NCBI GenBank assembly: GCA_017511965.1 | Contig: JAFWHT010000012.1 | Span: forward strand, 1,596-65,595 | Direction of reading: 5' to 3' | DNA from: Candidatus Saccharimonadota bacterium | Lineage (GTDB): Bacteria; Patescibacteriota; Saccharimonadia; Saccharimonadales; Saccharimonadaceae | Length of the DNA: 64,000 nucleotides | In this document: positions 6,360-61,900 of the stretch, in pieces | How the letters are laid out: each line of letters opens with the position of its first letter | Position numbering within the stretch: the first letter of the stretch is position 1 | Program-made: the position numbers and the translations under genes | Notes under the pieces: model-generated | What the model saw: only the letters and a program-made list of their open reading frames with translations | Told to the model about the DNA's origin: nothing | The model's database searches: none

Positions 6360-6365
6360 ATATAC

Positions 6366-7085: not shown

Positions 7086-7086
7086 A

Positions 7087-7758
7087 ATGTTTGACACAAT
7101 TTTCGATTCAACTGCGATTGGCCTAAATATCGAAAGCGCCCTTATCGCCGCCGCTGTGGCTTTGGGGTTAGGTATTGTTATTGCTGTAACCCACATGATT
7201 ACCACACGTACTAATAAAAGTTTTCTTGTAACACTTGCTACTCTACCACTTCTTGTTATGGCAGTCATGATTATGATTAATGGTAATCTCGGTACGTCAA
7301 TTGCTATTTTAGGCGCCTTTTCTTTAATTCGTTTTCGTTCTATTCAAGGTAGCGCCAAAGAGCTACTTAGTATTTTCTTTGCTATGACGGTAGGCCTTGC
7401 TTGTGGTATGGGCCATGTTTTATTCGGTTCGGTTATCACTGCTATTGCAGTTGTTGCCATCTGTTTCCTTTCGTGGACTAATTTTCTCGAACCCAATCGC
7501 TGTCGTCGTGTTCTTAAAGTTGTTATCCCCGAAGATTTAGACTACGACGAAGTTTTTTCCGAAGTATTTAAAAGATATACTCGTCGCGCTGAGTTAGTGC
7601 GCATGAAAACCGTTAATATGGGAAGTCTTTATAAATTAACCTACGACATTACCCTAAAACACGGCGTCAAAGAAAAAGCCTTTCTTGACGAAATTCGAGT
7701 AAAAAATTGCAACCTCAAAGTCCTGCTCTCTCAGCCTACTCTTGAGGAGGAAATTTAA
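7087..7758 (+). CDS. DUF4956-family membrane protein
   Basis: 223 aa with 4 TM segments and the LIRFRS...ELLSIFFAMTVGLACGMG core. Canonical neighbour of VTC-domain genes. Confidence 0.65.
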   Translation: MFDTIFDSTAIGLNIESALIAAAVALGLGIVIAVTHMITTRTNKSFLVTLATLPLLVMAVMIMINGNLGTSIAILGAFSLIRFRSIQGSAKELLSIFFAMTVGLACGMGHVLFGSVITAIAVVAICFLSWTNFLEPNRCRRVLKVVIPEDLDYDEVFSEVFKRYTRRAELVRMKTVNMGSLYKLTYDITLKHGVKEKAFLDEIRVKNCNLKVLLSQPTLEEEI

Positions 7759-9407: not shown

Positions 9408-9410
9408 TTA

Positions 9411-9419
9411 TGATATAAT
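9411..9419 (+). promoter_or_regulatory. Extended -10 (TGaTATAAT) 6 nt upstream of ATG 9426
   Basis: ttaTGaTATAATaattttATG with no SD. Confidence 0.5.
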
Positions 9420-9425
9420 AATTTT

Positions 9426-10388: not shown

Positions 10389-10399
10389 CCTTGAGCTTA

Positions 10400-10408
10400 T
10401 GATATAAT
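10400..10408 (+). promoter_or_regulatory. Extended -10 (TGaTATAAT) 6 nt upstream of ATG 10415
   Basis: cttaTGaTATAATataattATG, nearly identical to the element at 9411. Confidence 0.5.
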
Positions 10409-10414
10409 ATAATT

Positions 10415-12376
10415 ATGCTTAAGTGGGCTAACTTGTTTTCTATTCAAAAAACACACGAGACCATTTCTTCACCAGATGGTGGCGTAGTCTGTCATATATC
10501 CGTAGCGTCTGGTGGCGTAGTTTATCATATCGACAAAAACAATAAGCCAGTTGTTAAATCCTCAAGGCTTGGCTTTTTATTTTTTGGCGAAAAACCACTT
10601 TATAGCAACTTAAAAATCGTTCGTGCAGTACGCAAAAAAAATCGTGAAATAGTTAAATTATTGTGGGGCGAAGATAGTGAGATTTCTAATAATTGTAATG
10701 AATTAATTTTATATCTTTCCGAAAAAACTCCACCCGAGCGCATCTTTACGCTACGTTTTAGAGTTTTTAATGACGGTGTTGCTTTTCGCTACGAGATTCC
10801 ACCCCAGCCAAAGTTTCAACGTCTTTCCGTCGAAGAAGAATTAACCGAGTTTAATTTTGATTTAAATAGTGCTGTTTGGAAAATCCCTGCCTACCAACCC
10901 GATCGCTACGAATATAATTACGAAAAAAACATCGCCGCGAATCTCACCGAATCTGCCCATACCCCACTCACTTTTAAAACCCCAAACGGTGTTTATGCTA
11001 GCATTCACGAAGCTGCGCTCTACGATTATGGCTCGATGAATGTCAAGCTAAACAGCTCAAGTATTTTATCTTCCGACATCACTCCACTTTCCGACAATAG
11101 CAAGGCTCATATCAATTTGCCATTTAATACTCCGTGGCGAGTCATTATGCTGGCCGATTCGGCCATTGAGCTTACCACCAATCGAATGATTTACGCATTA
11201 AATCCACCACCAACACAGGATTTTTCGTGGGTTAAAACTTTAAAGTTTCTCGGTATTTGGTGGGCGATGTACGTAGGCGAATGGACTTGGGCACCGGGCG
11301 AAAATCATGGCGCCACCACTGCCCACGCCAAAGATTATATCGACGCCGCTCTAAGTTTGGGTATTAGTGGTCTTTTGATCGAAGGTTGGAATGATGGATG
11401 GGAAGGTGACTGGCTCGAAAACGGCATCAATAATAAATTCACTGTTTCTACTTCGGACTTTGACTTACCAAGAGTTGCTAGTTATGCCAAAAGTCGCAAT
11501 ATCGAGCTTGTCGGGCATCACGAAACCGTCGGCTTTATCGATAATTACGAGAAGCAACTCGAGAGTGCCTATAATTATTATGCAAGTAATGGTATTAACT
11601 ACATCAAAACTGGTTATGCAGGTAGCAAAATGCTTATCCACGGCTGCCGCGAATATCATCATTCTCAGCTTGGCGTTAACCATTATCAAAAAACCGTCGA
11701 ACTTGCCGCTAAAAAACACATTTGTCTTGACATTCACGAGCCTATCAAAGGTACAGGTATCGAGCGTACTTGGCCAAATCTTCTTACTCGCGAAGGTGCC
11801 CGTGGTCAAGAGTATGAAGGTGGTGCTCTTAGTCCCTCACACGTTTGTTTTTTGCCCTACACTCGGCTTCTTGCTGGTGGCATGGATTACACCAGTGGGA
11901 TTTTTGATCTCGATCATCCTACCAAAAAAATCCACACTACGATCACTCGCCAGCTAGCTTATTTTGTAGTAATTTATTCTGGCATGCAAATGGTTGCTGA
12001 TCGCCCGCATCTTTATGAAGCAAAATTCGCCCCACTCTTTAAGTTTATCAAAAATGTACCTACTAATTTTGCCAAAACTTTGCCACTAGCTGGTGAAATC
12101 GGCGAGTATTATATTGTTGCAAGACAAGATCGTGATAGTAGCGATTGGTATATCGGCGGAGTCACCAACGAAGATTCTCGTCACGCTAATTTGTACTTAA
12201 ACTTTTTGAGTGACGGCGAATATCTTGCCGAAATTTACGCCGATGCCACAGACGCCAATTATCAAACCAACAAATTTGCTCATAAAATTTTCGAGCAAAA
12301 AGTCACCAAAGATTCCATCATTAAAATCTTCATGGCACCAGGTGGTGGCTTTGCTATTCGTTTGCGTAAATTATAA
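10415..12376 (+). CDS. Glycoside hydrolase family 97 (alpha-glucosidase-like), no signal peptide
   Basis: 653 aa. Motifs FNDGVAFRYEIP, LIEGWNDGWEGDW, YIKTGYAG and REGARGQEYEG match my recollection of GH97 (SusB-like) enzymes. Confidence 0.7.
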   Translation: MLKWANLFSIQKTHETISSPDGGVVCHISVASGGVVYHIDKNNKPVVKSSRLGFLFFGEKPLYSNLKIVRAVRKKNREIVKLLWGEDSEISNNCNELILYLSEKTPPERIFTLRFRVFNDGVAFRYEIPPQPKFQRLSVEEELTEFNFDLNSAVWKIPAYQPDRYEYNYEKNIAANLTESAHTPLTFKTPNGVYASIHEAALYDYGSMNVKLNSSSILSSDITPLSDNSKAHINLPFNTPWRVIMLADSAIELTTNRMIYALNPPPTQDFSWVKTLKFLGIWWAMYVGEWTWAPGENHGATTAHAKDYIDAALSLGISGLLIEGWNDGWEGDWLENGINNKFTVSTSDFDLPRVASYAKSRNIELVGHHETVGFIDNYEKQLESAYNYYASNGINYIKTGYAGSKMLIHGCREYHHSQLGVNHYQKTVELAAKKHICLDIHEPIKGTGIERTWPNLLTREGARGQEYEGGALSPSHVCFLPYTRLLAGGMDYTSGIFDLDHPTKKIHTTITRQLAYFVVIYSGMQMVADRPHLYEAKFAPLFKFIKNVPTNFAKTLPLAGEIGEYYIVARQDRDSSDWYIGGVTNEDSRHANLYLNFLSDGEYLAEIYADATDANYQTNKFAHKIFEQKVTKDSIIKIFMAPGGGFAIRLRKL

Positions 12377-30733: not shown

Positions 30734-31294
30734 ATGAAAAAACGTGCGTTAATACTGTTGTTAGCTTGTGTCTTATCTACTTGCGGGCAAAAACCTGCAT
30801 CAAGTAAAGCCACAACCCAAGTCACGATAATAGACCGGCAAGAGACCAAGACGGAAACAGAGGTCGAACCGCCCAAGGCGTCAGAGCCTCCCAATGAATC
30901 TTCGCACGACATGCGCGAGGATAACCTCGCTGAGGATTGGCCCGACTGGTTCGTGGCACCTACCGGCGTCCCGGAAGACGAAGAGGTAAAGCAAGCTATC
31001 CAAGGCGCAGAATTCGACGCTTTGCCAAAATGGATGCAAGTGGTCGCCGTCCGACCACGCTCTGTAGTGGCTTGGCTGGAGATGACCAGACTAGTCACTC
31101 CACCGATTAACCCAGAGCTGTTTACGGGCTTTCTCAAAGAAAATCCTGAGTATATCATGCCAATCATGAGCCGGTTAAAAATCATATTCGAGAAAGCTGA
31201 AGCCGGCGAACAAAGCAATAACGTTGGCAGTCTTCCGCAAGAATTCATCGAAATACAGGATATCGTAAACGAAATTGCGCGTCAACTAGAGTAG
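30734..31294 (+). CDS. Acidic putative lipoprotein (186 aa) in a GC-rich patch
   Basis: AGGAGG lies 6 nt upstream. Signal peptide MKKRALILLLACVLSTC has a lipobox-like LSTC. Sampled 60-nt blocks are 57-62% GC, well above most of the window. Confidence 0.6.
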   Translation: MKKRALILLLACVLSTCGQKPASSKATTQVTIIDRQETKTETEVEPPKASEPPNESSHDMREDNLAEDWPDWFVAPTGVPEDEEVKQAIQGAEFDALPKWMQVVAVRPRSVVAWLEMTRLVTPPINPELFTGFLKENPEYIMPIMSRLKIIFEKAEAGEQSNNVGSLPQEFIEIQDIVNEIARQLE

Positions 31295-31297: not shown

Positions 31298-31328
31298 AAA
31301 AACCCTAGGGTAAAACCTAGGGTTTTTT
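31298..31328. terminator. Bidirectional rho-independent terminator
   Basis: aaaaaccctagg-gtaaaa-cctagggtttttt, an A-run, stem and T-run between convergent genes. Confidence 0.75.
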
Positions 31329-31338: not shown

Positions 31339-33864
31339 TTAAGCACTAAACGTTACTGAATTTCTTAAATCCCGATACAGACTTCGCCGAGTTAACAGCG
31401 CTAACATATCATAAAAATCTTTATCTTCTGTCAAAATATCGATTCTAAACTCTACCGGCTCTACTTTTACAAAAGCATACCGTTCCTCCGGGTTATATCT
31501 TGCCAAATAATCCATATAGTCCATATATCCAAGCGCTATTTCCGCGTCTTCTCGACTCATCCCACTCCGGCGTGCCAGAATTGCTTCTCGCGAATTATCC
31601 TGTGGGTATTTGGCCTCATACTCCTCTTTCCAGATTGCCGTGTCGCTCTTTTTTTCATCTAAAAGCGCCGAAACTGTATCTAGCAAAGTATAAGCAGAAA
31701 AAACTTCTATAGCTTCTTTGAATTGGTTAGAACTACTTATGGTGTATTTCGAACCAATCGCTACTTCTGGTGGCGGAGTAAGTAAACCACCAAGTATCGG
31801 TATATCAATCGGTGATTCGCAGGCATTATCCAAGGCAAGAAGATTACTTAGCAAAGCAGAAATTTTTCCCAAAGGTCCACCATATTTTTCTTTCCATTTC
31901 TCGCAAATCACCGCATCTTGAATCCCAACCGTAGTTTGCCGCCCCATAGCTAAATCACGCAGTTCGTCCATAGATACTTTTAGTCCCGCCAGCATTGATC
32001 CGAGCGCTTCTTTAGTTTGCCCCATTCTAGAAGTATCAATTGTATTGTGTGTCGTACAATACATATCTCCAACCACCCCAGCCGCCGTCACTGCCGTTGG
32101 GCAATTTCCGTTAGTTGTCAAATAAGATTCCTCTGCCTCCGCCAAAACTGTGTTAGAAGTTAAATCTTGCACCGATTCTTTAAACAAATCCGCTACCGAA
32201 TTGAATAACCCAGTCCCTGCCGAACTCCCACTTCTGGCGAAATTTTGTACTGCAATTACCCCAAATTTATGCGCTAAACTCCCCAAAAATGTATGCTTCG
32301 AGCTAATGTCAAACGGGCTTAGTGTTGCTCGGTCGGCTGCCGCTCGTCGGGCAAAGACTTCATCAACTACTTCTTTATAGCCCAAGACTGCTTCTGCGTC
32401 TGACGGCGCCGCAGCAAGCACCCGCGAATTGATATTGTTCGACAAAAACGACCCACCCATCGGCGTCCGTTCTCCACCAATCGTTGACTTAGTTAGCTCA
32501 TAAGTATCATCATAAAATGTCGTCGCAAGACTATTTGACGCTCTTAAAACTCGCTCGTCTGTATTTCCCTTCTCTTTCATCCTGATCAAAACATTAAATC
32601 GCTTATTTGCATTTGTCGCCATAGTGGTTCGATTAATTATGTCAGTCGCCGCCCCACCCGACATCTCAAGGATTCGGTCCCTCGAATAATCTGCCGCTTC
32701 GGATACTGAATACGAACGATTCAGTACCGTCGCCAAGAAATTCGGCGTCCTTATCAGCGAGTTCGTCGTGGTTTTGTTTGCGCCGGTTTTTACATCCGTT
32801 ACTGTTACCGTATTGACTTGGGTAAAAGTATTTAGCAACGGATCGACTAAATCCGAATGCTCGCTGTCGATTCGCGCCACATTCAACCCCTCTTCTAACG
32901 TCGAAAATGTTGCCGCTGCGATGTATGGTTCATTCGCCGAAACCGCCGTATTAAGTAGCGATACGGCCTTTTCCGTTGCTCTCTCTCCTTGAACATTCCC
33001 CCCAATCATTGTTGCAAGCGCTGCGCCACTATTTGCATCTGTTCTTTCCTCTGTCGTAAAAGAGCGAGTCTTGCATGGGCAATCTTCAATGGTCGCATCT
33101 TTGCCAGTTTGTTGTTTAAATGCCGCCGCACATTCCTCGTCTATTTTTTCGCCATCATATTTACAATCCTCATCGCACCCATTCAGCCCCACGCTCGACA
33201 CTTTTCTGATAATCCGATCAAAAATTTTTTCAAACTGCTCTTGGTCTCCCTCTATACTCCCCGTTGTCTTCCAGCTTGCAAAATTATTACGGCTCAGTCC
33301 AAACTCTTTATAAACTTTATTTACGTCATCACTATAATAAAATCTCGATGTCATATCTGTCGCTAACGCAAACGCCGCATAAAGTCGCGGGTTTGACTCA
33401 ACTTTTGCCACAAAGTCATCTGCTACAATAATTTCGCCTTCAAACCGCATTGCTAGTTCACCAGTACTATGATCATAAAATACCCCATCGCTCGCTACTT
33501 CCGTCTCTAATTCAGCCGAATAATTATTTGTTCGTACGAATTCGCCTACTAAAGTTGTCTGTCCAACCTCAACTCCATGCTTTTCAAAATCTGCCGCTAG
33601 AGTTTCATTAAAATATCCTCGTTTTAATTGACTCGCGACTACATATTCGGCCTGCTTTTCGATAACCGCCGAAGTCTCATCAAATCCTAACGCCCTCTGC
33701 AAACCGTAATCAATCGTTGCCATTACTGCTATCGGAATTGCAAACAACAAAGCCGCCGCCGCTACTGCTATAATTATTACAATCATAACAGTAGCCCCTA
33801 CAGCCATTGCGACTTTTTTGTTTTTGTTCTTACCAGTTATATTTTCTTGTTCATCGTTTTCCAT
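31339..33864 (-). CDS. Large bitopic protein (841 aa), N-terminal TM anchor, family unknown
   Basis: N-terminal KNKNKK plus a long hydrophobic helix, then about 780 aa of hydrophilic sequence with a Cys cluster (NGCDEDCKYDGEKIDEECAAAF...DCPCK). No Walker motif or hydrolase motif seen. Last gene of the operon. Confidence 0.6.
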   Translation of the reverse strand: MENDEQENITGKNKNKKVAMAVGATVMIVIIIAVAAAALLFAIPIAVMATIDYGLQRALGFDETSAVIEKQAEYVVASQLKRGYFNETLAADFEKHGVEVGQTTLVGEFVRTNNYSAELETEVASDGVFYDHSTGELAMRFEGEIIVADDFVAKVESNPRLYAAFALATDMTSRFYYSDDVNKVYKEFGLSRNNFASWKTTGSIEGDQEQFEKIFDRIIRKVSSVGLNGCDEDCKYDGEKIDEECAAAFKQQTGKDATIEDCPCKTRSFTTEERTDANSGAALATMIGGNVQGERATEKAVSLLNTAVSANEPYIAAATFSTLEEGLNVARIDSEHSDLVDPLLNTFTQVNTVTVTDVKTGANKTTTNSLIRTPNFLATVLNRSYSVSEAADYSRDRILEMSGGAATDIINRTTMATNANKRFNVLIRMKEKGNTDERVLRASNSLATTFYDDTYELTKSTIGGERTPMGGSFLSNNINSRVLAAAPSDAEAVLGYKEVVDEVFARRAAADRATLSPFDISSKHTFLGSLAHKFGVIAVQNFARSGSSAGTGLFNSVADLFKESVQDLTSNTVLAEAEESYLTTNGNCPTAVTAAGVVGDMYCTTHNTIDTSRMGQTKEALGSMLAGLKVSMDELRDLAMGRQTTVGIQDAVICEKWKEKYGGPLGKISALLSNLLALDNACESPIDIPILGGLLTPPPEVAIGSKYTISSSNQFKEAIEVFSAYTLLDTVSALLDEKKSDTAIWKEEYEAKYPQDNSREAILARRSGMSREDAEIALGYMDYMDYLARYNPEERYAFVKVEPVEFRIDILTEDKDFYDMLALLTRRSLYRDLRNSVTFSA

Positions 33865-33867
33865 AAA

Positions 33868-35802
33868 TTACATGATCCCGCCCGTCCAAGGATTACGTTT
33901 TGCTCCGCCATTGTTTTGATTTGTGGAGCCATTAGAGCTATTGGATCCACTAGGACCATTGCCACTCGAGCCACTCGAGCTAGTAGAGCCTCCCCCAGCT
34001 CCCGTAGAACCACCCGTAGTTCCTTGTGGCGGCAGATTTCTTCCTTGATATTCCTCCCGCACCGCTAGCTGTGATCCCTCTGCGATATCACCCAGATTAT
34101 ACGCACTAGCATTATTGTGCAATCCGCTGAGTCGCGCATCGCTCACGTGCTTGACCAATTCCTTTACCTCGCTTGTAGATTGCGTCATAAAGTCCTTATC
34201 TTTATCAAGCACCTTACGCGCGATATTTTGGACGACAGTTGTGCCATCAACTTGTCTTCCAGCAGTTTGTTCGCTCTGCATCCAGTTAGCCTGATCTTGT
34301 CTCATTTCTGCATGATTAGCAAACGTAGCTTTTCGCCCAGCCGCCGCTTCTTCGCGCCGATGGGTCAAATAATCATTATTCATAGCATCATATTGCTCTT
34401 GCGTCGTATCGGCAGAAATCGCACCCGAAGCAATATCAGAAAGCCTCGAAGAAGTTCGGCGACTCTTACTATCCATCGCATTCTTTACTGCATTATTCTT
34501 CGCCATCGCTTCACCCATTAACTCTGCCGATGTGCCAGTTCTTCCTTCGCTCGCCTTAGCGATTTGCTTTGCGCCCCCCATCATACCAGATAATTGCGAA
34601 GTTAGAGCGTCGATCTTCCTTAGCTCGCCAGCATTTAATGTCTCTCCTTGATCTACTCTATTTAGAAGACCACTCAACTGATTCCCCATAATATCAACGT
34701 TGTAATTTCCGGTCTCTTCACGCATCGCCATTTTGGTTGCTTCGATATCCTCAGCTGCACCTCGTTCAGCTAACGATTGATTTCTCGCAAAGCCTCTTTC
34801 TCCTCCCGAAATCCAAGCGCGGAATCGCTGTCTTCCACTCGCAGTGCCAGCCCGTACTGCCTTATAGGCATCGGCATTTCTTTTTGCTCGGCCAAGCATA
34901 GCTGTTCTCTCTGCATCTTTATAAATTGCCGAATTCTGTACGACTCCCTCTGCTTGCCTTAAACCACTCTTGACATTAGCGCCAATTCTCTGTAGATAAC
35001 CACCCATCTCGCCAAATACCGCCAACGCTTTTTCAAGAATCTTCGGCGCTGCCGCTAGTGGCAAGAATATCATTACTATTGCCACTATTGCTAGTCCCGG
35101 ATTATCACCATTAGCACTCGATATCGCAAGTAGTCGCATTATCCTTGAAGCTGCCAAAATCGCCGCACAAACCGGATAAACCATCAAAATAATTTTAAAA
35201 GCATCAAACCATTTTTTATAAATTTGTTGAGTATTCGGCAAAATATAGCAAAGCATTGCTAGTGGTGCTACTGCTACCAAAAGCGCCGCAAGTAGTTGTC
35301 GAAGCCCTACCATCAAGAAGAATATAATCACCGAAACCAACGCATAAAGAGCCAAGAAAATTATCGGAATCAACCAAAACATCCCGCCAACCGTAAGTGC
35401 TGCAGCTATTGATCCAGCTACTGCTCCCCCTGCCGAAGCAACTCCAAAAAGTGAAGCAAATATCGCTCCAAAAGTTAGCGCAGAGCCATCGACTCCAGTT
35501 TGACTTTGTACACTATAATAAGCATCACGTGCAGCAGCTATAATTCCTTTTCCGATAATGTTTGACAAATCTACTGCTACCTGGCAAATTAAATAAGACA
35601 GATTAATCAAAATTGCCACAATAATCAACTTCGGCAACATTTTCTTGATACCATAGTTATCAATTCCAAACCCAGTTAATTGTGAGAAAATAATTGCCAG
35701 TAGAATAACAATCATCCCAGCATTGGCGAAAGTCATTAGATTTTGCCAAATCAAAAATGTGGCACTGCCGTCTCCAAAAAGGTTAGCTTCTAACTGAAAC
35801 AT
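33868..35802 (-). CDS. Polytopic membrane protein, VirB6/TrbL-like (tentative), with long hydrophilic C-terminal domain and G/S/N-rich tail
   Basis: 644 aa. Residues 1-260 carry about 6 TM helices (LPKLIIVAILINLSYLICQVAVDLSNIIG...), followed by about 380 aa of soluble sequence ending GTTGGSTGAGGGSTSSSGSSGNGPSGSNSSNGSTNQNN. Assignment rests on architecture and recollection, not on a search. Confidence 0.45.
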   Translation of the reverse strand: MFQLEANLFGDGSATFLIWQNLMTFANAGMIVILLAIIFSQLTGFGIDNYGIKKMLPKLIIVAILINLSYLICQVAVDLSNIIGKGIIAAARDAYYSVQSQTGVDGSALTFGAIFASLFGVASAGGAVAGSIAAALTVGGMFWLIPIIFLALYALVSVIIFFLMVGLRQLLAALLVAVAPLAMLCYILPNTQQIYKKWFDAFKIILMVYPVCAAILAASRIMRLLAISSANGDNPGLAIVAIVMIFLPLAAAPKILEKALAVFGEMGGYLQRIGANVKSGLRQAEGVVQNSAIYKDAERTAMLGRAKRNADAYKAVRAGTASGRQRFRAWISGGERGFARNQSLAERGAAEDIEATKMAMREETGNYNVDIMGNQLSGLLNRVDQGETLNAGELRKIDALTSQLSGMMGGAKQIAKASEGRTGTSAELMGEAMAKNNAVKNAMDSKSRRTSSRLSDIASGAISADTTQEQYDAMNNDYLTHRREEAAAGRKATFANHAEMRQDQANWMQSEQTAGRQVDGTTVVQNIARKVLDKDKDFMTQSTSEVKELVKHVSDARLSGLHNNASAYNLGDIAEGSQLAVREEYQGRNLPPQGTTGGSTGAGGGSTSSSGSSGNGPSGSNSSNGSTNQNNGGAKRNPWTGGIM

Positions 35803-36077
35803 TATTCAAAAAACTCCTCTATTTTAGTACTTAATGCATCCACCGCCCCCGCGAGCGTTCGGATTACCGGGCAAACCACCCAGCCCAAACTTACAGATTT
35901 TTTACATTCCTCAATAAATTCCTCTTTATCTAGTACATAAGAATCGCTTGCAAAAGAACCACTCCTCCCACCGTGCTGTCTGCTGTCGTCTTCTGCATTT
36001 GCAATCTGTCCTACCAAAAACAGCGAACTAATCATTATAACTGCTACTATTATTAATTTTAGCTTTTTTCTTCTCAT
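35802..36077 (-). CDS. Small secreted protein (91 aa) carrying the shared WVVCP...LAGAVD...FFE C-terminal module
   Basis: Signal peptide MRRKKLKLIIVAVIMISSLFLVGQIANA. ATGA overlap with the upstream gene and TAATG overlap with the downstream gene. Confidence 0.65.
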   Translation of the reverse strand: MRRKKLKLIIVAVIMISSLFLVGQIANAEDDSRQHGGRSGSFASDSYVLDKEEFIEECKKSVSLGWVVCPVIRTLAGAVDALSTKIEEFFE

Positions 36078-37591
36078 TCAAAAAACCCTTCTATTCCATT
36101 AGCTAACATATCTACCGCGCCCGCTAGCGCGTCAATCATTGGACAAACCACCCAAGGTAATAAAATCTCTTCGCTCTGCAAGCACGCATCGTAAAAATTC
36201 TCTGCCTGAAAATCTCCTAAAAGCTCATCTTCCGAATGTATTGTGATATTAAATCCTGCCAATGTATCTCTACAGGTCCAAATAAAATCAGTTGGCACTT
36301 CTCCACCCGTGAATTGAATTAATTCCTCGCCACCACTAGCGTCTCTTTTTGCTACATGTTCTCCCGTACGTTGAACTCTTTCGTATTCATTTAGTACCTC
36401 TCTCGCCGCTGCTTTTTCTTCTTCGTTTCTTTCAGGATCATTTAATACTTTTTCTTCGATTTCGCTTTTCTTTTTCGCAATCTCTTTATTAATCTCTTGG
36501 CGACAGTAATTCAAAATCTTCTCATTTACAAATTTTACATACTCGCCTATCGTATCGTTCATTTTGCGAATTAACGCTCGACAAGTTTTAGTATCACTGC
36601 CAGAGCTCATCGCAAAACTCCCCTTTGCAGTATCTTTAGACGAATCATTGATGTAGTAAGAACCAGATTTTACATTACCGCTAGAATCCACTTTAAATCC
36701 GACTTCTCCATCTGTTGCGCCTTCTACGAAAGTCGCCGAAATACTACTGCACTGTTTTTCGAAATCTAAACTATATAGATAAAAACCATCAACCTTGTCA
36801 TAATTATGCAAATCATCAAAAGAAATTCGCTGGATATATTCGTTACCAGATTTTGCCTGAAAATCTTGATAAAGTTGTTTTAGGAAAGCGTCTCTTTGCC
36901 CTGCATCTTCGTTAAATTTAAACACTTCGGCGTCTGTGCAAGAAATACTCGAGTCGGCCTCGACTTTTTGCGTGACAAGATCAAACGCCGTTGTCCCGTC
37001 GTTACCGAGATTTATCGCATCGCCATACTTTGCGGGTTTAAAAATACCCGTACCTGCATCATTGCAGGCTACTTTCAAGATATCTTCTTTACTCACCGAA
37101 ACCGAACCAGACAATGCAAAATCAGAGTTATAGTTTTTATATACGTAGGCCGCCATACTCATCAGACTTCCTCCGCTTTTTAATTGGTCGGTACATTTAA
37201 TGTTGCCGTCATTTTTGCCGTCCCCGTCAGTAAAATGCCCCTCAAACCACACGCCAGTCCCGATATTCGTCGGTCTCGAATAAACGTTGCCACTTGCTAC
37301 ATCTTTAGCCGAAAAACCTTGCGTTGTTGTGCTACCGGTAGTAGCTCTAGTTACGCTATCCATGCATCGTCCAAATTTCTGGAAGACCAAATGCGCCTGT
37401 GCCGCATTTTTAATTTTCGACCATTGGTCATACAAATCAACATTCGTTGCACTAAGGCCTAATTTTTGATACGTTACTTCGAGATCTGCATAAGCTTTAA
37501 GTGGTACAAGGAAAAACTGCACTGCTAACACCACCACAACAAATATACTCATCCATCTTTTACTCTTCGCTATATTCATCGTATCCTCCAA
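36074..37591 (-). CDS. Secreted protein (505 aa) with coiled-coil segment and the same C-terminal module
   Basis: Signal peptide ...KSKRWMSIFVVVVLAVQFFLVPLKAYA. It has a charged helical stretch (EINKEIAKKKSEIEEKVLNDPERNEEEKAAAREVLNEYERV) and ends LPWVVCPMIDALAGAVDMLANGIEGFFE. Confidence 0.65.
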   Translation of the reverse strand: MEDTMNIAKSKRWMSIFVVVVLAVQFFLVPLKAYADLEVTYQKLGLSATNVDLYDQWSKIKNAAQAHLVFQKFGRCMDSVTRATTGSTTTQGFSAKDVASGNVYSRPTNIGTGVWFEGHFTDGDGKNDGNIKCTDQLKSGGSLMSMAAYVYKNYNSDFALSGSVSVSKEDILKVACNDAGTGIFKPAKYGDAINLGNDGTTAFDLVTQKVEADSSISCTDAEVFKFNEDAGQRDAFLKQLYQDFQAKSGNEYIQRISFDDLHNYDKVDGFYLYSLDFEKQCSSISATFVEGATDGEVGFKVDSSGNVKSGSYYINDSSKDTAKGSFAMSSGSDTKTCRALIRKMNDTIGEYVKFVNEKILNYCRQEINKEIAKKKSEIEEKVLNDPERNEEEKAAAREVLNEYERVQRTGEHVAKRDASGGEELIQFTGGEVPTDFIWTCRDTLAGFNITIHSEDELLGDFQAENFYDACLQSEEILLPWVVCPMIDALAGAVDMLANGIEGFFE

Positions 37592-38255
37592 AATCTCTTA
37601 CCAGTGCGATAATACGTCCCATCACATCACAATAATATATCTCGTCAAAGGCTTCATAATCAGTATAAACTGCCAAAATCTCTTCCGACATTCCAGGATA
37701 AACCAGCGTCCCATCTTTTGCCGCTGCATCAATTTTATCTACAATGCTAGTAATTTTTTGATTGTTAAGTGCAAGTAATTGTTTTCGTTTATCTGCACTA
37801 TAATCATTTTCGATATATTCGTACAATAAGTTATATAATGTTACGGTATCAGTATAAGCAGGTAGATTTGTTTTCATACTTTCCAGTAATGTTGTAAAAT
37901 CTTCCAACACCAGTTCGTCTGTAATTTCATTTACATTCACATTATTTAAATCCGTGCTAAATTTATTCATTATTTCACCGATTTTATTTATCGAATCTTT
38001 AGTGTTTTTAAAGAAAAATTCTAATCCAAAAGCATAACTACCGTTAGCCATGTCTTCAAAAAGCCCTTGCGCCCAACCAACATCATTATAATTATTGTCC
38101 AACATTTCTGAAATCGAAATATCTACTTCTCCATCATCCTGTTCTTCCCCGCTTGTAAATATCGTCATAATACCAAAAACAAGACCGAGCACTAAAATAA
38201 TCCCAATCACCAAAAACCAAACCTTATTCTTAGTACTCACCCTATTGGTATCCAT
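37560..38255 (-). CDS. Bitopic acidic protein (231 aa), N-terminal TM anchor
   Basis: VWFLVIGIILVLGLVFGIMTIF helix followed by an acidic ectodomain. Its size and topology resemble VirB8-type components, but no motif supports this. Confidence 0.5.
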   Translation of the reverse strand: MDTNRVSTKNKVWFLVIGIILVLGLVFGIMTIFTSGEEQDDGEVDISISEMLDNNYNDVGWAQGLFEDMANGSYAFGLEFFFKNTKDSINKIGEIMNKFSTDLNNVNVNEITDELVLEDFTTLLESMKTNLPAYTDTVTLYNLLYEYIENDYSADKRKQLLALNNQKITSIVDKIDAAAKDGTLVYPGMSEEILAVYTDYEAFDEIYYCDVMGRIIALVRDFGGYDEYSEE

Positions 38256-38296
38256 ACTATTATATTACCATAAGCATCTTGTTAGGACAAGACTTT

Positions 38297-39442
38297 TTAT
38301 TTTTTATAACCTTCTAATGTGACATTTACGGCCGTTTCGCCACCATTGCGATATACGGTTAGCTGTACTGTATCACCCGGCTCGTATTCCGAAACCAAAT
38401 TCGCCAAAGATCCAGCCGCGCCAACTTTTACACCGTTTACTGCTGTTACAATATCTTTGTCGAGTAGTCCCGCTTTAGCCGCCGGACTATTTTTAATAAT
38501 TGCCGAATAAGTCGACGAACTATAAAGATATGCTCCCGACGAAACCGGTAATTCATAGGCTTTTGCGATTTCTGGAGTGATGTCTACCGAATATACGCCA
38601 AGATAAGTTCGCTCTGCCGAGCCGTTTTTGACTAACTGTTTTAACATCCCCTTTACGCTCGAAATCGGAATCGCAAAACCCATATTCTCCGCCGAAGTCG
38701 AAACCGCCGTATTAATTCCAATCACTTCTCCCGCCGCATTAACGAGCGGCCCACCGGAGTTACCAGAGTTAATCGCCGCATCAGTTTGAATCATATCGGT
38801 CAAAGTTTCTGTATTATAACCAGTACTATCTGACGCCGTTACTGAACGCCCCGTACCCGAAACAATCCCAGAAGTTACAGTATTTTGATATTCGCCCAAA
38901 GCATTACCTATCGCAATTACTTGTTGGCCGACTGTAATTGTTTTAGAGTCGCCTAAAGTCACTGCCGGCAAATCCGAAACATCTTTTATTCTTAGAAATG
39001 CCACATCGTTTAGCGGGTCCGTCGCCACTGTCTCAACTTCCTCATAAATTGTTCCGTCATCTAATACCACGTATACTTTATTTGCATCATTTATTACGTG
39101 TTTGTTGGTTAAAATATATCCGTCGCTCGTTACGATTATACCAGTCCCTGCCGCCGAAGAATCATAACTTCGTCCAAAAAAATCTGCCGATTTTACTGAC
39201 GTTACTATCGACACCACCGATTTAGATACTTTGTCTGCGATTTCTGCAATTGATCCTTCAATAAAATTTGCCGAGTTTCCATCTACCCCGCCTCCCAAAA
39301 ACGTAATCGGTGTCGAAACTTTGGTGTAAGCCATCAGCCCAAAAGTCAATCCACTCCCGCCAACTAGTATCGAAATTAAGACCAAAAACACCAAAATTCC
39401 ATTTACGTTAGTCTTTTTTTCTTCTTTCTCTTTCATTTCCAC
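38297..39442 (-). CDS. htrA: HtrA/DegP-family serine protease with PDZ domain, N-terminal TM anchor
   Basis: 381 aa. GTGIIVTSDGYILTNKHV (His), DVAFL (Asp), GNSGGPLVN (Ser) and a C-terminal PDZ-like region. Confidence 0.9.
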   Translation of the reverse strand: MEMKEKEEKKTNVNGILVFLVLISILVGGSGLTFGLMAYTKVSTPITFLGGGVDGNSANFIEGSIAEIADKVSKSVVSIVTSVKSADFFGRSYDSSAAGTGIIVTSDGYILTNKHVINDANKVYVVLDDGTIYEEVETVATDPLNDVAFLRIKDVSDLPAVTLGDSKTITVGQQVIAIGNALGEYQNTVTSGIVSGTGRSVTASDSTGYNTETLTDMIQTDAAINSGNSGGPLVNAAGEVIGINTAVSTSAENMGFAIPISSVKGMLKQLVKNGSAERTYLGVYSVDITPEIAKAYELPVSSGAYLYSSSTYSAIIKNSPAAKAGLLDKDIVTAVNGVKVGAAGSLANLVSEYEPGDTVQLTVYRNGGETAVNVTLEGYKK

Positions 39443-39448
39443 CTCCTT

Positions 39449-40249
39449 TTAGTTTAATAAAATCGTAAATCTTGGATCACTAAAGAATACCACAATCACC
39501 CCTATAAGCACCAGTCCAAAAATTACTGGTCCAGCAATATGTACAAACCTAAAATCGTCTTGGTATTTTATCATTGCTTGACGGGCATAATTATATACAA
39601 ATGCAAAAATTGTCAAAATTATCGCCAGCTGCGGCAATTTTACGCCTGACAAACCAAAATTTTCATAAGTATAAATAATCGACCAAACCGACGATAGGTA
39701 AGTCACTTCTGCAAAAATTAGTCCACAAATCAAAGTTGCTAGTGTAAAATTTTTATCGCTACCTTGCGCCAAAACATGGCGACTTGCCGCATAGCCAATC
39801 ATAAAAGATATCAGCACCAACCAAATTGAGTTTAACCCCGATGTTAGTAGTACTCCAGCTGATATTCCCAAAAACACTGCCACCAACGCTTGCACCAGGG
39901 TGGCTGTTTCTGACGATAGTGGCTTAATAAATAACAGCCATACCGGATAAAACACCATTAAAATTATATCCGAAATCAAAAATGTTGTTCCACCAGCATA
40001 CGCTAATAATACTACGCTAATTCCCACGATTATATCCACCAAGTTAGCTTTTAAATTAACAAAAAAATACCGTGATCTTACTGCAAAAATTCGCCATTTC
40101 GACACTAACACTAGCAAAATTCCAATCAGTGGGCTTCCTGACAAAACCGTCACTAGTACCGCTCCTACTCCCAACAAGATATTCAAAAACACTTGTACCA
40201 TGCTACTCGCGATGTTTCGAGATTTTCTAGCTAACACATAATCCGCCAT
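39449..40249 (-). CDS. Polytopic membrane protein (266 aa), unknown family
   Basis: About 8 hydrophobic helices. First gene of the minus-strand operon. TGgTAATAT lies 7 nt upstream of the ATG. Confidence 0.55.
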   Translation of the reverse strand: MADYVLARKSRNIASSMVQVFLNILLGVGAVLVTVLSGSPLIGILLVLVSKWRIFAVRSRYFFVNLKANLVDIIVGISVVLLAYAGGTTFLISDIILMVFYPVWLLFIKPLSSETATLVQALVAVFLGISAGVLLTSGLNSIWLVLISFMIGYAASRHVLAQGSDKNFTLATLICGLIFAEVTYLSSVWSIIYTYENFGLSGVKLPQLAIILTIFAFVYNYARQAMIKYQDDFRFVHIAGPVIFGLVLIGVIVVFFSDPRFTILLN

Positions 40250-40256
40250 ATATTAT

Positions 40257-40265
40257 ATATTACCA
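40257..40265 (-). promoter_or_regulatory. Extended -10 (TGgTAATAT) 7 nt upstream of ATG 40249
   Basis: Minus strand: aattgTGgTAATATataatatATG with no SD. An alternative TATAAT register sits only 2 nt from the ATG, so the assignment is tentative. Confidence 0.4.
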
Positions 40266-40291
40266 CAATTATTTAAAAATAAACTTAAAAA

Positions 40292-49536: not shown

Positions 49537-50136
49537 TTATTGTGCGTTCGCAAAAACCACCAACCGATGCGACGCATCACCGTTACCGTACGACACACCC
49601 GCACAAGTAAATAAAGCCACATCATACCCAAGCGCCGTATTTGCGATTCGTCCCATCAATTTTGCATCTCCGTTCAAAAACCCTTCTGCTGTTTTTTGGT
49701 ATGTCTGCACCGCAGTCACTTGGTATTGTCGCGCCACCCCACCCTCAGTAATCGTAATTGTCTCTCCTACGTATCGATTCGACAAATTACCTAGTAAATT
49801 ATAAGAATTATGGCCATAAATCATCTTATTATATTTATAAAGCCCGTTATAGCTTAAATTCAAAGCAGTTGCCTCATATTCGGCCGCCGAACCAATATAG
49901 TATGATACTTGATAATTTGCCATCGCTGGTGCCGTATTTACCGGCGCTGTATTAACTGGTGCAGTATAACTAACCGTTGATTCTACTACTGGTTCTGGCT
50001 CTGGTTCTGGCTCTACCGTCAAAACCGCATCCGCACCTGGACTTTTTGCCAAAATATGGTCTGCCATTAAAAATTCTGGGGACGTAATCACCCCTATAAG
50101 GCTAAAAATAAATATCGAAAAAATTAACTTCACCAT
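49537..50136 (-). CDS. Sortase-family transpeptidase (paralog 2) with low-complexity linker
   Basis: Start at MVKLIFSIF, with GGAG 6 nt upstream. It has a TM helix, EPEPEPEP and APVNTAPVNTAP repeats, then YGHNS (His), ALFTCAG (Cys) and SHRLVV (Arg). Confidence 0.6.
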   Translation of the reverse strand: MVKLIFSIFIFSLIGVITSPEFLMADHILAKSPGADAVLTVEPEPEPEPVVESTVSYTAPVNTAPVNTAPAMANYQVSYYIGSAAEYEATALNLSYNGLYKYNKMIYGHNSYNLLGNLSNRYVGETITITEGGVARQYQVTAVQTYQKTAEGFLNGDAKLMGRIANTALGYDVALFTCAGVSYGNGDASHRLVVFANAQ

Positions 50137-50245
50137 TATAACTCCATTTATGACCAAGTTATACAATCATTATAGCATACTTTGCCGAAAAAGTCAAGAT
50201 ATGCTATAATTTAACAGAGGGGAGTACATTAAAAGGAGGAAAAGG

Positions 50246-54198: not shown

Positions 54199-54762
54199 AT
54201 GGTAATAAAAAGAATTAAAGCAGTCTCTTGGTGTATCATTTTAATTTGTTTTATCTCTATACTATTTCCAAGAAATGACACTACAGTTTCCGCTATGGAA
54301 CCCGTCAATCCTGGCATCGAAACTGCCAACACCATGGTATTTCCTTTTTCTGAAGGAGATTTAATTGTGCTTGCTAAAACTCTTTACGGTGAAGCAAACA
54401 ACGTTAAATCAAAAGCTGAAAAGGCTATGGTGATTTGGTGTATTTTAAATCGTTACGATGCAAAAGTTTTTGGGGCCACCATTACGGAAATCTGTACCAA
54501 ACCACGTCAATTCGTCGGATACAGTCCAGGTAATCCGGTAACCGAAGAAAATCTAATGCTTGTTGGCGATGTCGTAAACCGTTGGTTTATGGAGAAAAAC
54601 AGCACCGAGCCAATTGGGCGAACCTTGCCTATCGGATTTTACTATTTTTGTAGTGATTCAAATCCAGCCAAAGGCGAGTGGCACAACAAATTCTATTACT
54701 ATGATCTAAACGGCAACAGAATCTACTATGATTATAGAAATCCCATTTCTAACCCCTACTAA
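54199..54762 (+). CDS. Secreted SleB-like cell-wall hydrolase (Hydrolase_2-type) candidate
   Basis: 187 aa with a signal peptide. LAKTLYGEANNV...AMVIWCILNR resembles the SleB/CwlJ catalytic-domain opening. Confidence 0.5.
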   Translation: MVIKRIKAVSWCIILICFISILFPRNDTTVSAMEPVNPGIETANTMVFPFSEGDLIVLAKTLYGEANNVKSKAEKAMVIWCILNRYDAKVFGATITEICTKPRQFVGYSPGNPVTEENLMLVGDVVNRWFMEKNSTEPIGRTLPIGFYYFCSDSNPAKGEWHNKFYYYDLNGNRIYYDYRNPISNPY

Positions 54763-58966: not shown

Positions 58967-61900
58967 TTACCGCGCCACGCAACGGATATTGTGACCAAAA
59001 GCGATATTTGAGGAATAAGAATCATTATAGCTTGCGTTATGGTTGAAATAATAGGCCGTATTAAATACATACATCGGGCCTCCGGCGGTTGAGGACCAGT
59101 AAGAGCCGGCATCACCGACACCCTGTAATTCGCTACCCTGATCAATCGCCCCACCTCGTGTAAAGTAAAGCGGTGAGGCAATCAGTCCAGAATCAGTAGA
59201 ATTTACGCCGTTATTATACAACCGGTTTAGCTCCTTAAACTCGTCAACATGGCCTGTAATTTCATTGGCGATAATCGGCAATCGCCAACCTTTCGGACAA
59301 ATTGAGGTCTGCGGATTTTGCGAAGGGTCGGTTTCTGTGCCATTAGAATACGCACCGGAATCGTTTACTGCTAGCGCGGCGGTCCAGTTGTAATAGTTCC
59401 CTATTCTACTATGGCGATTAGTTGAGCCATCCCAATAAGCCTCACCCGGATCGGCCGAAGCAAGGCCATTATCACCAAACGCACCAACCCAGCCCGCAAC
59501 GCTCTCACCAACATTCAAGCCTTGGATGTTGATAGTTGAAACATCTGGAGTCCAGTCGCTAGAAATATCCGTATCGGCCGGGGTGTAAGTCTTCGTCGCG
59601 TCGATATCGTGGTCTAGGTTTTCGATCATCCAGCAGTTGCCGTCTTTGAGTTTCGCCACCGAATAAGTTTTGCCATCACGCGTGTCTTTTAGGACCGCCT
59701 CGGTCCCAACCGGCGTAGCCGAGCAAATACCCGGAGTCATTTCTTGCATGGTAGAAATTTGTTCGAGTGGGGTAGGTTCGGCCCATTGGGCGTAAAGGGT
59801 GATGGTTTCGCCTTTACCGACGAGGTCGGTAACTTCTTGTTCGTTAGCATAGGAGTCGCCGGTGCCGTCGTTTTTAGTATTCCACCCGGTAAAGACCTTG
59901 GGGTTATTCGTAAATGTATTAGCGGAGAGTTTAGTCGCAACATCGGTATAAATAGTTTGGTCGGGCATATCACCGGAGCCACCATTGGCGTCAAATTTTA
60001 CCGTATAGTTTTCTCTCGCAATGCAACGCACCGCCGTACCAGAAGATTTTGCATAGTTACTGGTGCCTGGATACAATCGTTTGAGCGCGGGATTTAACGT
60101 AAAAATATATGCAGCGTTTTCGTTTGCGGCAGTAGATGTGTAAAGCATAGTATAAGCACTATTTTTCTCACTATTAGTCTGCCAGTCGCCATTTTCATGA
60201 AAATTGTTGGGGTAATCCCTAAGGGCATCCATGGCAGTTTTGCCCGATACGTTAGTTTCGGTACCTTGATAATAGAAATTATTTTGTGGAGCAAAACCCA
60301 TAATACTCAAACTTAGTTGCCAATAATCGCTATTTGTCGCATTGGCTACACCTCCACCTTTTGGTAGGCGCCATCCAGCTGGACAAATAGAGCCAGAAAC
60401 ACTAGTATTATTAGTGGTTATAGCACTAGTGCCATTTCCAGCGGTAGCCGAATACCAGTTATAATAATTACCGCGGGAATAGATTTTAGCAGTGCCACCG
60501 CCCCAAACCGTTATCGGATTTGCTGTATTGCTCGTATTGAGTTTCGATTGATCATAACAGTGTACGCCGAGCTGAGCATCATTTGAGAGACACCAGTCAT
60601 CCGAAGTGGGCGAAAGGTGGTTTGATGTAGTACCATTATAGACATTTACAAGTGGGAGGATAGGATTATCAGTATTTTCGCGAGTAATCTCCGCCGAATC
60701 ATCCAAACGAAGATTTTCGATTGTCCAACATTTATTATCAGCAAGTTTAGCGACAGCATAAACTTCATTATCGCGAATGTCAGTTAAGGCGGTAACATCA
60801 CCAATATTCATGCTATTGCAGCCATTCCAGTTTTGTAAGTTCCCAGCCGAAGGGATCCAATTTGCATAAAGATACAGACCTTTTATATGAATATCAGGAA
60901 GGTCAACAACCTCATTTGGGCCATAACTTATGCCAGTGCCATCGGCTTTAGTGTTCCAACCGGCAAAACCATAACCTTCACGTTGGAAATTTGAAACTCT
61001 TAGCATTACACTAGTCGTATTAACTACGACGCCCTGATCAGACATCGTGGTGGGTGAATTCTCTGCGCCGTTGCTATCGTAATGGATGAGATATCTTGGA
61101 TAGCCCCATTGGGCGTAAAGGGTGATCGTTTCGCCGGCGGTGGTGAGGTCGGTGACCTCTTGTTCGTTGGTGTAGGAATCGCCGGTGCCGTCGGGCTTAG
61201 TGTTCCAGCCCACAAAAGGCTCGGTATTAGTAAAAGTATTAGCAGAAAGCTTAGTCGCAATACCGACTTGGATGGATTGGTCCGCCATATCACCAGAGCC
61301 ACCATTAGCGTCAAAAGAAACCGTGTAGCGCTCATCAACAACGCATCGCGCTGGCATTCCGGTAAATTTACTAGCCGAAGAAGTCCCCGGATTAACCGAC
61401 TTACTAAAGCTTACCATACCAAAATTATAGGCATTGCCATATTCTGAGTAAAACGTAGAAGTCCAGAAACTCCCAATAGTACTACGATTATTTGGACTAT
61501 CCTTTTCATACCTGCCAGAGTAAACAAAATTGTTTGGGTATTTTGTCATAATTTTAATTAATTCCTCTCCTTCGTTGAGGTAGATTGGTTGATCTGTATT
61601 ATCGTAATTACTTGGCTGGACGCCATTATTAAAGTGGTTCACAATTAGATCCCAGACATCGTTATTGGTCTGGTTATTTTTATCTCCGCCTCTTGGTAAA
61701 CGCCAACCAGCTGGACAGATTGAGATGCTAGAAAGCGACACATTTCGAATCAGTACTTTGTCCACGTTAGCGACTATCGCTGTCCAAGTATAATAATTTC
61801 CTAGTGAATAAATATTTTCCGTGCCGGTCCACGAAGTCAAAGTTTCAACTGCGTTAGCGGTATTGATATTATTGTAGCGTGGCATTTGCGTATTATTATT

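Follow-up and report, generated by a model that had tools for sequence, protein, structure and literature searches.

A VirB6-like protein with a detached ectodomain in a gut Saccharibacterium: candidate surface platform of a dispersed type IV secretion-like machine

The window analysed here, a 64-kb stretch of chromosomal DNA from the metagenome-assembled genome of a gut Saccharibacterium (contig JAFWHT010000012.1) whose nearest genomes are metagenome-assembled genomes (MAGs) from the ruminant gut, carries a cluster of seven minus-strand genes, all of them recovered in the list of open reading frames (ORFs) where an original prediction, made from the letters of the sequence, had placed them. 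They encode, in the order of transcription, a membrane protein of 266 amino acids (aa), an HtrA protease, and proteins of 231, 505, 91, 644 and 841 aa, the 644-aa product being related to VirB6/TrbL of type IV secretion systems (T4SS). The recomputed gene junctions (+6, +41, −32, −4 with ATGA, −1 with TAATG and +3 nt) are as had been claimed, and the topologies proposed for the products are backed by Kyte-Doolittle hydropathy, a crude method, in which the 266-aa and 644-aa proteins are polytopic and the HtrA, 231-aa and 841-aa proteins have one N-terminal hydrophobic segment each. Cleavable-looking signal peptides are found on the 505-aa protein (cleavage between AYA and D) and on the 91-aa protein (between ANA and E). 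Scans of all seven proteins with Pfam and NCBIfam identified the HtrA protease and no other product, and PADLOC and PHROGs scans of the remaining six gave nothing meaningful. As described below, comparison with related loci points to a long VirB6-like protein whose extracellular domain has become the product of a separate gene.

The assignment of the 644-aa protein to VirB6/TrbL holds at the level of its family, without a direct Pfam match. It has 369 homologs, and those with a source name come from Saccharibacteria; for most of the homologs listed, including the 92%-identical P0001, PF19590 (TrbL_3) is a precomputed match. PF04610 (TrbL) is matched by 9 of 31 aligned family members, with relatives at E 1e-47 to 1e-50, and in a re-scan 4 of 6 members passed its gathering score of 25.9 bits (28.4–32.1 bits), with matches that span most of the 215-position model (e.g., positions 17–212). 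Neither NCBIfam nor a sequence search of PDB gave a match for the 644-aa protein. The 31-member alignment has an invariant core signature, SQLTGxGIDNYGIKKMLPKLI, and a scan for the GIDNYGIK pattern in one genome per GTDB species retrieved 279 relatives. Of these, 80 loci were kept, and 77 of them are titled Saccharibacteria or Nanosyncoccus; two of the others come from MAGs classified no further than “bacterium”, and the third from a MAG that bears the label Oscillospiraceae and is probably mis-binned. (Loci compared with the window are labelled L001 and so on.) A tblastn search of 72,556 plasmids in PLSDB with the TrbL-like core gave no match. The 644-aa protein falls within a branch of the TrbL/VirB6 superfamily that is specific to Saccharibacteria. 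It consists of a polytopic domain of ~260 aa, a Cys-free basic soluble domain of ~340 aa that is presumed to be cytoplasmic, and a G/S/N-rich tail. About six hydrophobic segments lie at residues 27–255, and the K-rich loop GIDNYGIKKMLPK behind the first helix fits an N-out orientation, as does the architecture of fused homologs, in which a Sec-exported ectodomain stands ahead of the helix that matches helix 1. A polytopic core of ~5–6 helices with an extracytoplasmic N-terminus is thus a feature that the 644-aa protein has, as judged by crude hydropathy.

Most members of this family are longer, at 1,000–1,300 aa, and carry a Sec signal and an N-terminal domain of ~450–500 aa before the first membrane helix. 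Several lines of evidence show the relation of the 505-aa protein to that domain. An exhaustive phmmer search of 1.84 billion representatives with the 505-aa protein returned 36 matches: about ten stand-alone proteins (480–540 aa), about 18 long ones (1,036–1,665 aa), in which the match was confined to the N-terminal ~30–470 residues, and for the rest fragments. A local phmmer search of the ORFs of the fetched loci found the fused VirB6-like protein of L070 at 4e-21, and the 505-aa and 644-aa sequences, concatenated, gave a single BLASTP alignment with this 1,110-aa protein (residues 56–796 against 44–736, E 1e-82). The stop and the start of the split forms mark a single exact position, with ...IExFF ahead of it and ...LxAxLF behind it. 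The C-terminal end of the 505-aa protein is the junction motif WVVCPxIxxLAGAVDxLxxxIExFFE, which in nearly all fused homologs stands, in the form C...WVxCPxI...AVDxL...IExFF, directly ahead of membrane helix 1. All ten Cys of the 505-aa protein are invariant in split and fused forms, and around them the body of the ectodomain diverges fast, with a mean identity of 22%. This colinearity identifies the 505-aa protein as the detached N-terminal ectodomain of long-form VirB6-like proteins, and the alignments show that in the clade of the window the gene is split exactly at the boundary between the ectodomain and the first membrane helix.

In a rough neighbour-joining tree, the window and loci L001, L007, L009 and L032 form one split-form clade, which is sister to a fused clade that includes L012. 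A second split form, L018, lies elsewhere in the tree, which suggests an independent fission. The AlphaFold2 (AF2) model of the 505-aa protein is confident (mean predicted local distance difference test score (pLDDT) 81.7, predicted template modelling score (pTM) 0.81), and Foldseek found no match for it in PDB (best E 2.5) and none in BFVD. The same program found no PDB relative for the 841-aa model, and no E value below 0.4 was seen in any of these runs. The 505-aa protein matches neither Pfam nor NCBIfam, and so no VirB5/TrbJ profile. A VirB5 structure for this protein therefore finds no support, since a confident model has nothing like it in PDB.

The 91-aa gene lies between the two halves of the split gene and overlaps its neighbours on both sides. 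Its product consists of the signal peptide, a linker of ~25 aa and a copy of the junction motif with two Cys; residues 52–91 share 55% identity with the C-terminal 42 residues of the 505-aa protein (E 5e-12), and at the DNA level the two genes resemble each other over the motif and on into the stop codon. On this similarity, the 91-aa protein is a truncated paralog of the C-terminus of the 505-aa protein. A counterpart is found in a metagenomic contig, L089, where a 102-aa mini-gene whose product starts MRRKKIKL lies between the 3′ end of a 505-like gene and a TrbL-like gene; the TrbL-like gene overlaps the mini-gene by 1 nt, and the N-terminus of its product is, by eye, about three-quarters identical to that of the 644-aa protein. 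The mini-gene is absent from the L007 and L009 loci and from L001, a relative at 55% identity. We considered whether the 91-aa ORF could be the N-terminus of a frameshifted 644-aa gene and rejected this idea, as P0002, the closest fused or long homolog, lacks it and L089 keeps it as a separate gene. Genes for 78–80-aa proteins upstream of lone 841-like genes in two other loci were likewise considered as homologs of the 91-aa gene and rejected, their products being unrelated tail-anchored proteins; the protein is conserved and starts MG(V/I)IVNKE in both (L005, 9743–9979; L006, 9706–9948).

These relationships remove the analogy with trbJ-trbK-trbL or virB5-virB6 that had been drawn from the order of the genes, as the 505-aa protein is, by homology, an ectodomain of VirB6 and the 91-aa protein a shortened paralog of it. 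The signal peptide of the latter has no lipobox Cys, as a TrbK-type lipoprotein would have.

The two genes at the edges of the module encode bitopic proteins that recur with it. The 231-aa protein has a short cytoplasmic N-terminus, one transmembrane segment (residues 14–32) and an acidic, helical-looking ectodomain. A word-indexed homolog search with it returned only itself, and its syntenic homologs are 24–28% identical, with 26–27% for those of L001 and L007. An iterated local profile found 231-like bitopic proteins of 170–430 aa in 29 loci; the gene precedes the 505-like gene in split forms, and for 15 of 71 fused forms a 231-like ORF is the immediate upstream neighbour of the VirB6-like gene. 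The 231-aa protein is fast-evolving. The suggestion that it could be a VirB8 is not supported, for it has no Pfam match, the VirB8, PrgL and NTF2 profiles matched neither the 231-aa protein nor 16 family members, and the family profile found in PDB only helical-bundle, chemoreceptor and SipD chains (best E 1e-4). In L009 (7646–8411), the homolog, which appears to start at ATG 7646, seems to be broken near a G-run at ~7745; a frameshift introduced by sequencing or assembly could account for this, as could a phase-variable tract.

The 841-aa protein, which is 100% identical to NCBI IKF03_01375, belongs to a family of 19 homolog clusters that are found only in Saccharibacteria. It is bitopic, with a large and mostly helical ectodomain that contains conserved Cys, and its AF2 model (pLDDT 69.8, pTM 0.72) and the family profile revealed no relatives in PDB. 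In the window and in L001, L007, L009, L036, L051 and L086, an 841-like gene immediately follows the VirB6-like gene; in L005 and L006 it stands alone, between a MIP channel gene and pheS. As partners of the VirB6-like protein, the 231-aa and 841-aa products are lineage-restricted.

The features of the locus are collected in Table 1. Two gene starts deserve revision, on the strength of upstream purine-rich boxes: for the 505-aa gene, ATG 37579, which follows a GGAGG box, is the likelier start and would give a product of 501 aa and reduce the overlap with the 231-aa gene to 20 nt, and for the HtrA gene the likelier start is ATG 39436, behind AAGGAGG.

Table 1. Genes and putative regulatory features of the cluster (positions in the 64-kb window)
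Feature	Position	Strand	Basis
Polytopic membrane protein, 266 aa	39449-40249	-	ORF list and hydropathy
HtrA/DegP-type protease, 381 aa	38297-39442	-	Trypsin_2 and PDZ_2
Bitopic acidic protein, 231 aa	37560-38255	-	ORF list, hydropathy, charge
Secreted Cys-rich protein, 505 aa	36074-37591	-	phmmer, colinear alignment
Mini-paralog with signal peptide, 91 aa	35802-36077	-	Similarity to the 505-aa C-terminus
VirB6/TrbL-like protein, 644 aa	33868-35802	-	Family-level Pfam match
Bitopic protein with conserved Cys, 841 aa	31339-33864	-	Homologs, AF2 model
First extended -10 box, TGGTAATAT	40257-40265	-	Sequence reading and exact-match search
Second extended -10 box, TGGTAATAT	38262-38270	-	Exact-match search of the window
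Terminator hairpin	~31299-31326	not assigned	RNA folding against shuffles

The HtrA call was sound (Trypsin_2, 1.5e-34; PDZ_2, 4.2e-14), and the product is a trypsin-like serine protease anchored in the membrane by its N-terminus. Against the Do-family model TIGR02037 the protein reached 9.7e-86 and 288 bits, below the cut-off of 416 bits because it has one PDZ domain instead of two. The 266-aa protein matched nothing in Pfam, NCBIfam or PDB. Conservation of the gene order across Saccharibacteria, which had been proposed as a check, holds in part. The order 231-505-644-841 recurs in L001/L008, L007 and L009, so that the order of this four-gene module is conserved, and other genes lie upstream of it in L007 and L009; the linkage of HtrA and the 266-aa gene to the module is found, among 90 loci, only in the closest relative (L001/L002/L008). 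It is therefore probable that HtrA is an envelope-housekeeping neighbour and that the 266-aa protein lies outside the VirB6-like module. One of the recurrences has an unusual setting. In L007 (1–22205; JGI 3300010282 Ga0129307_1000413) the module has a GC content of 43–48% and a neighbouring 2-kb bin (2001–4000) one of 67%; a set of IS66 transposase genes comes directly after the 841-like gene, and surface proteins with SLH and Big_2 domains are also encoded on the contig. This could point to a chimeric assembly of the L007 contig or to a move of the module into a different genome.

The signals for transcription also bear on the extent of the unit. The extended −10 element predicted ahead of the cluster is present, by reading of the sequence and by exact-motif search, and the strong terminator predicted at its end is borne out by folding: the hairpin reaches −18.9 kcal/mol (z = −3.8), a stability equalled by none of 200 shuffles, with an 11-bp stem that has an A-run and a T-run at its flanks. 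It lies between the 841-aa gene and a convergent gene for a 186-aa predicted lipoprotein. A promoter and terminator pattern scanner flagged neither this hairpin nor either of the two extended −10 boxes described here, and it missed the terminator because the T-run falls inside the stem. The 9-mer of the extended −10 element, TGGTAATAT, occurs twice in the whole window, and the second copy was not part of the original prediction. The first box is 7 nt ahead of the ATG of the 266-aa gene and the second 6 nt ahead of that of the 231-aa gene, and neither gene has a Shine-Dalgarno (SD) sequence; purine-rich SD-like boxes do precede the HtrA, 505-aa, 91-aa and 644-aa genes. In L001 the counterpart of the first box is TGTTATAAT, at the equivalent position. 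The genes for the 231-aa homologs of L001, L007 and L009 have TGCTAATAT or TGCTAAAAT 6 nt ahead of their ATG, in DNA that is otherwise not conserved (positions ~7642–7650 and ~5616–5624 in L001, ~5519–5527 in L007 and ~7631–7639 in L009). The consensus TGnTAAWAT, 6–8 nt before starts that lack an SD sequence, is thus found at the same position in four genomes.

Because the 266-aa gene has no SD sequence, the mRNA from the first box would probably be leaderless or nearly so, and the conserved boxes suggest that this lineage of Saccharibacteria expresses these envelope genes from leaderless mRNAs. The first box would likely serve the 266-aa gene and HtrA, and the second the five genes from 231 to 841, in units of two and five genes. 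Between them, just past the HtrA stop, there is a weak 7-bp hairpin; as it is weak and has no U-tract, read-through from HtrA into the 231-aa gene may occur. A single seven-gene transcription unit, as first proposed, is doubtful in the light of this conserved promoter-like box before the 231-aa gene and of the restriction of the HtrA/266-aa linkage to the closest relatives. The functional unit is likely to be the five-gene module 231-505-91-644-841, with HtrA and the 266-aa gene as a separate adjacent pair of envelope-housekeeping genes.

The flanks of the cluster carry the genes for RmuC, signal peptidase, PrmC and RF1, in a synteny that is kept in a relative, and its GC content (0.38–0.45, in a window that ranges from 0.37 to 0.50) shows no obvious break in base composition. 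A Pfam scan of the larger ORFs of the window found proteins of replication, repair, translation, glycan metabolism and the cell surface, and no relaxase, coupling protein or integrase. As the flanks are housekeeping genes, the locus is therefore not an ordinary conjugative element. The region also holds several secreted or surface proteins that we mention for their own sake. The 186-aa lipoprotein (30734–31294, plus strand; lipobox LSTC), which belongs to no Pfam family, shares the terminator hairpin with the 841-aa gene. A giant surface protein of 1,654 aa with seven Listeria-Bacteroides repeats is encoded at 58967–63931 (minus strand), and a 2,098-aa protein of homologous type lies in L001 (1–3749) directly upstream of rmuC, beside the module region. 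There is a sortase-domain gene at 49537–50166, and a secreted 187-aa protein at 54199–54762 (plus strand), 14 kb from the module, carries a TLYGEAN motif that we take to resemble those of SleB-type cell-wall hydrolases. A block of genes at 7758–12376 (plus strand) encodes secreted glycan-related proteins, among them a Cthe_2159 carbohydrate-binding protein, one with a CAP domain and a glycoside hydrolase of family GH97; in a reduced genome, such metabolic and surface functions are unusual.

The absence of a secretion motor, which the original prediction had noted, was confirmed for the ORFs scanned in the window: the Pfam scan of the larger ORFs found no VirB4, VirD4 or VirB11 and no relaxase, and the N-termini of small ORFs, which were read across the window without a profile test, included none that was pilin-like. 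A complete T4SS beside the cluster, the finding that had been named as decisive against a non-conjugative reading, was likewise not recognised among the ORFs examined in the 64 kb. Related loci give a broader picture. In L004, a long-form member lies 5–9 kb from genes annotated by Pfam as T4SS_pilin and from Hsp20, followed by a further VirB6-like gene, and L075 has the same layout, with small ORFs that are pilin-like by eye and with ComF-like and Hsp20-like genes. This gene order mirrors that of Southlakia epibionticum ML1, whose essential T4SS cluster (SEML1_0006–0019) encodes cell-wall hydrolases, VirB4, PrgI, an NTF2-like protein and six pilins; SEML1_0013 (~1,090 aa) has its best structural match in TrbL/VirB6, and SEML1_0011 (~1,000 aa) in a protein labelled “Type IV secretion system protein” (PMC10633639). 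In the close relative RGIG9952 (GCA_017645955.1), a locus of the window type (L008) coexists with a second one (L012) in which a 285-aa gene and a gene for a VirB6-like protein of 1,281 aa lie beside folD and murB, and three further genomes occur twice among the 80 loci. L063 carries two VirB6-like genes in tandem (1448–5140 and 5884–9570; 1,230 and 1,228 aa), near neighbours in the rough tree, in what looks like a recent tandem duplication. In the loci examined, the VirB6-like family is a dispersed, multi-copy component. In a published survey, VirB4 was found in 2,417 of 3,035 assemblies of Patescibacteria and, of 480 VirB6 homologs, 304 were near virB4 and 176 away from it (PMC12102498); T4SS genes are also scattered in other reduced genomes, such as that of Rickettsia (cited in PMC12102498).

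Taken together, our results suggest that the module encodes a paralogous “extended VirB6” subassembly of a Saccharibacterial T4SS-like apparatus. The 505-aa and 91-aa proteins would be exported through their own signal peptides, and the junction helix at their C-termini would dock non-covalently onto the extracellular N-terminus of the 644-aa protein, recreating the architecture of the fused forms. With the bitopic 231-aa and 841-aa partners, the complex could form a membrane-to-surface platform of a T4SS-like machine whose VirB4 ATPase, VirB3/PrgI and pilins would have their genes in other parts of the genome, and which would serve host contact or transfer instead of conjugation. Of the machines of Saccharibacteria, the T4SS is one of few for which a requirement in their epibiotic way of life has been demonstrated (PMC10633639). 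We give this reading as a whole, a surface-exposed platform of a dispersed machine with its motor elsewhere and with docking through the junction helix, a probability of about 0.6. Several observations weigh against it. The 644-aa protein by itself has no Pfam match at E <= 1, TrbL included, and the profile of its family matches no VirB6 chain in PDB. VirB4, VirD4, PrgI and pilin were not recognised among the ORFs examined in the 64 kb, and in a crude Walker-A screen of 87 related loci no VirB4-like gene was seen within 10 kb of the VirB6-like gene. In the 505-aa model, the C-terminal helix at which the docking would take place is of low confidence (pLDDT 41–58), docking onto the 644-aa protein is proposed from colinearity with the fused forms, and the −10 boxes are sequence matches only.

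The distance from any motor could also mean that none is used. A VirB6-like domain could have been exapted as the anchor or conduit of a Cys-rich adhesin or host-contact ectodomain, in an ATPase-independent surface complex that needs neither VirB4 nor pilins; of the rivals, this is the one nearest to the “novel apparatus” of the original prediction, and we consider it possible, if on balance unlikely. A VirB4-like Walker-A ATPase is almost never found within 10 kb at the 87 loci, several genomes have at least two dispersed paralogs beside housekeeping genes, no structural relatives could be detected for the ectodomain or the 841-aa protein, and fast divergence around invariant Cys is what would be expected of a surface-recognition domain. 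However, the only relatives studied experimentally are inside an essential, VirB4-bearing T4SS cluster (PMC10633639), some members of the family adjoin T4SS pilin arrays, and scattered T4SS genes are known from other reduced genomes such as that of Rickettsia (cited in PMC12102498). The proposal of a stripped-down or novel apparatus that is not a conjugation module stands as far as conjugation is concerned and overstates the novelty: the family consists of known parts of the Saccharibacteria T4SS (PMC10633639, PMC12102498), with at least two paralogs in several genomes and some of these beside T4SS pilin genes.

The extent of the unit and the integrity of its genes raise two further alternatives. 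If the cluster were a single seven-gene envelope operon, HtrA and the 266-aa protein could be dedicated assembly or processing factors for the VirB6-like complex, an arrangement to which the tight packing on one strand, the lack of a strong terminator between HtrA and the 231-aa gene, the divergently adjacent signal peptidase gene and the conservation of the order, minus the 91-aa gene, in the 55%-identity relative would all be congenial. We think it quite improbable, given that the pair is not near the module in L007, L009 and all other family loci, that a conserved extended −10 box stands directly before the 231-aa gene in four genomes and that HtrA is a general quality-control protease. As to the split itself, a gene in fragments by comparison with fused homologs, no ATPase or relaxase found nearby and a related locus (L007) that abuts an IS66 transposase might bring to mind the decaying remnant of a conjugative element, with the split gene and the 91-aa ORF as pseudogene fragments. 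Yet the ORFs are intact, with signal peptides, SD boxes and all ten Cys kept by the split form in five or more divergent genomes; a second genome (L089) retains the mini-gene, a second split (L018) is found in a separate clade of the rough tree, and the flanks are housekeeping genes, with no integrase and no obvious break in base composition. Decay is thus very improbable indeed.

Within the preferred reading of a dispersed T4SS-like machine, the split invites a more specific proposal, namely that the Cys-rich ectodomain is a modular and exchangeable surface “tip” carried on the VirB6 platform by the junction helix, in the role that VirB5 has in Gram-negative systems, with the 841-aa protein as a second wall-spanning component, one not recognised before. 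This is a speculation that we regard as rather doubtful. If it were true, splitting, which has occurred at least twice in the rough tree, would let cells mix 505-aa ectodomains and bare 91-aa docking peptides on one oligomeric platform, and such mixing could tune or mask host recognition. Independently of this proposal, the locus shows the N-terminal extension of a VirB6-like protein to be an autonomous, disulfide-rich domain, predicted to be exported by Sec, that is able to exist as a separate polypeptide, and it defines an exact putative docking or junction motif. It also identifies two conserved and unannotated partner families, the 231-like and 841-like proteins, and it delimits constructs (ectodomain, junction peptide and membrane core) for work on interactions and localisation. 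For annotation, it is a warning that stand-alone proteins of ~500 and ~90 aa can be fragments of VirB6, and not VirB5/TrbJ-like or TrbK-like proteins. The papers that we found by full-text searching and read make no mention of the split ectodomain, the docking motif, the mini-gene or the two partner families.

The T4SS of Saccharibacteria has already been described, and the locus is a variant of its parts list and no new class of secretion system. The closest comparison is with the VirB6 proteins of Patescibacteria (SEML1_0013 and SEML1_0011, the TM7x region, and those of Quinonero-Coronel et al. 2025), with the ML1 proteins compared through their published description. Common to both are long, phylum-specific VirB6/TrbL-like proteins of ~1,000–1,100 aa, with more than one paralog per genome, no relaxase nearby and, in some genomes, VirB2-like pilin arrays, Hsp20 and ComF alongside. 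The window differs in having the ectodomain as a gene of its own, a mini-paralog between the two halves and an 841-aa partner after them, and in that VirB4, PrgI and pilin were not recognised in its 64 kb. With TrbJ-TrbK-TrbL and VirB5-VirB6 there is a surface likeness in the order of a secreted, a small secreted and a polytopic protein; the homology of the 505-aa protein, however, is with the N-terminus of VirB6-like proteins and not with TrbJ/VirB5, and the 91-aa product differs from TrbK in lacking a lipobox and in being a paralog of the 505-aa protein. The 231-aa protein resembles VirB8, PrgL and TraM in its size class, its bitopic N-in topology and its position beside VirB6, and departs from them in its family, which matches no VirB8, PrgL or NTF2 profile and finds helical bundles only in PDB. 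Finally, the extended VirB6 proteins known elsewhere (the Rvh paralogs of Rickettsiales, and the 700–900-aa homologs of MPF-FA systems, e.g., TcpH) share with this family a hydrophobic TrbL/VirB6 core with large hydrophilic extensions, multiple paralogs and the scattering of T4SS genes in reduced genomes (PMC12857230, PMC12102498). The role of such “extended” domains is regarded by reviewers as an open question (PMC12857230). In those proteins the extensions are central or C-proximal (PMC12857230), whereas the family of the window has a Sec-exported, disulfide-rich ectodomain at the N-terminus, either fused to the membrane core or encoded separately.

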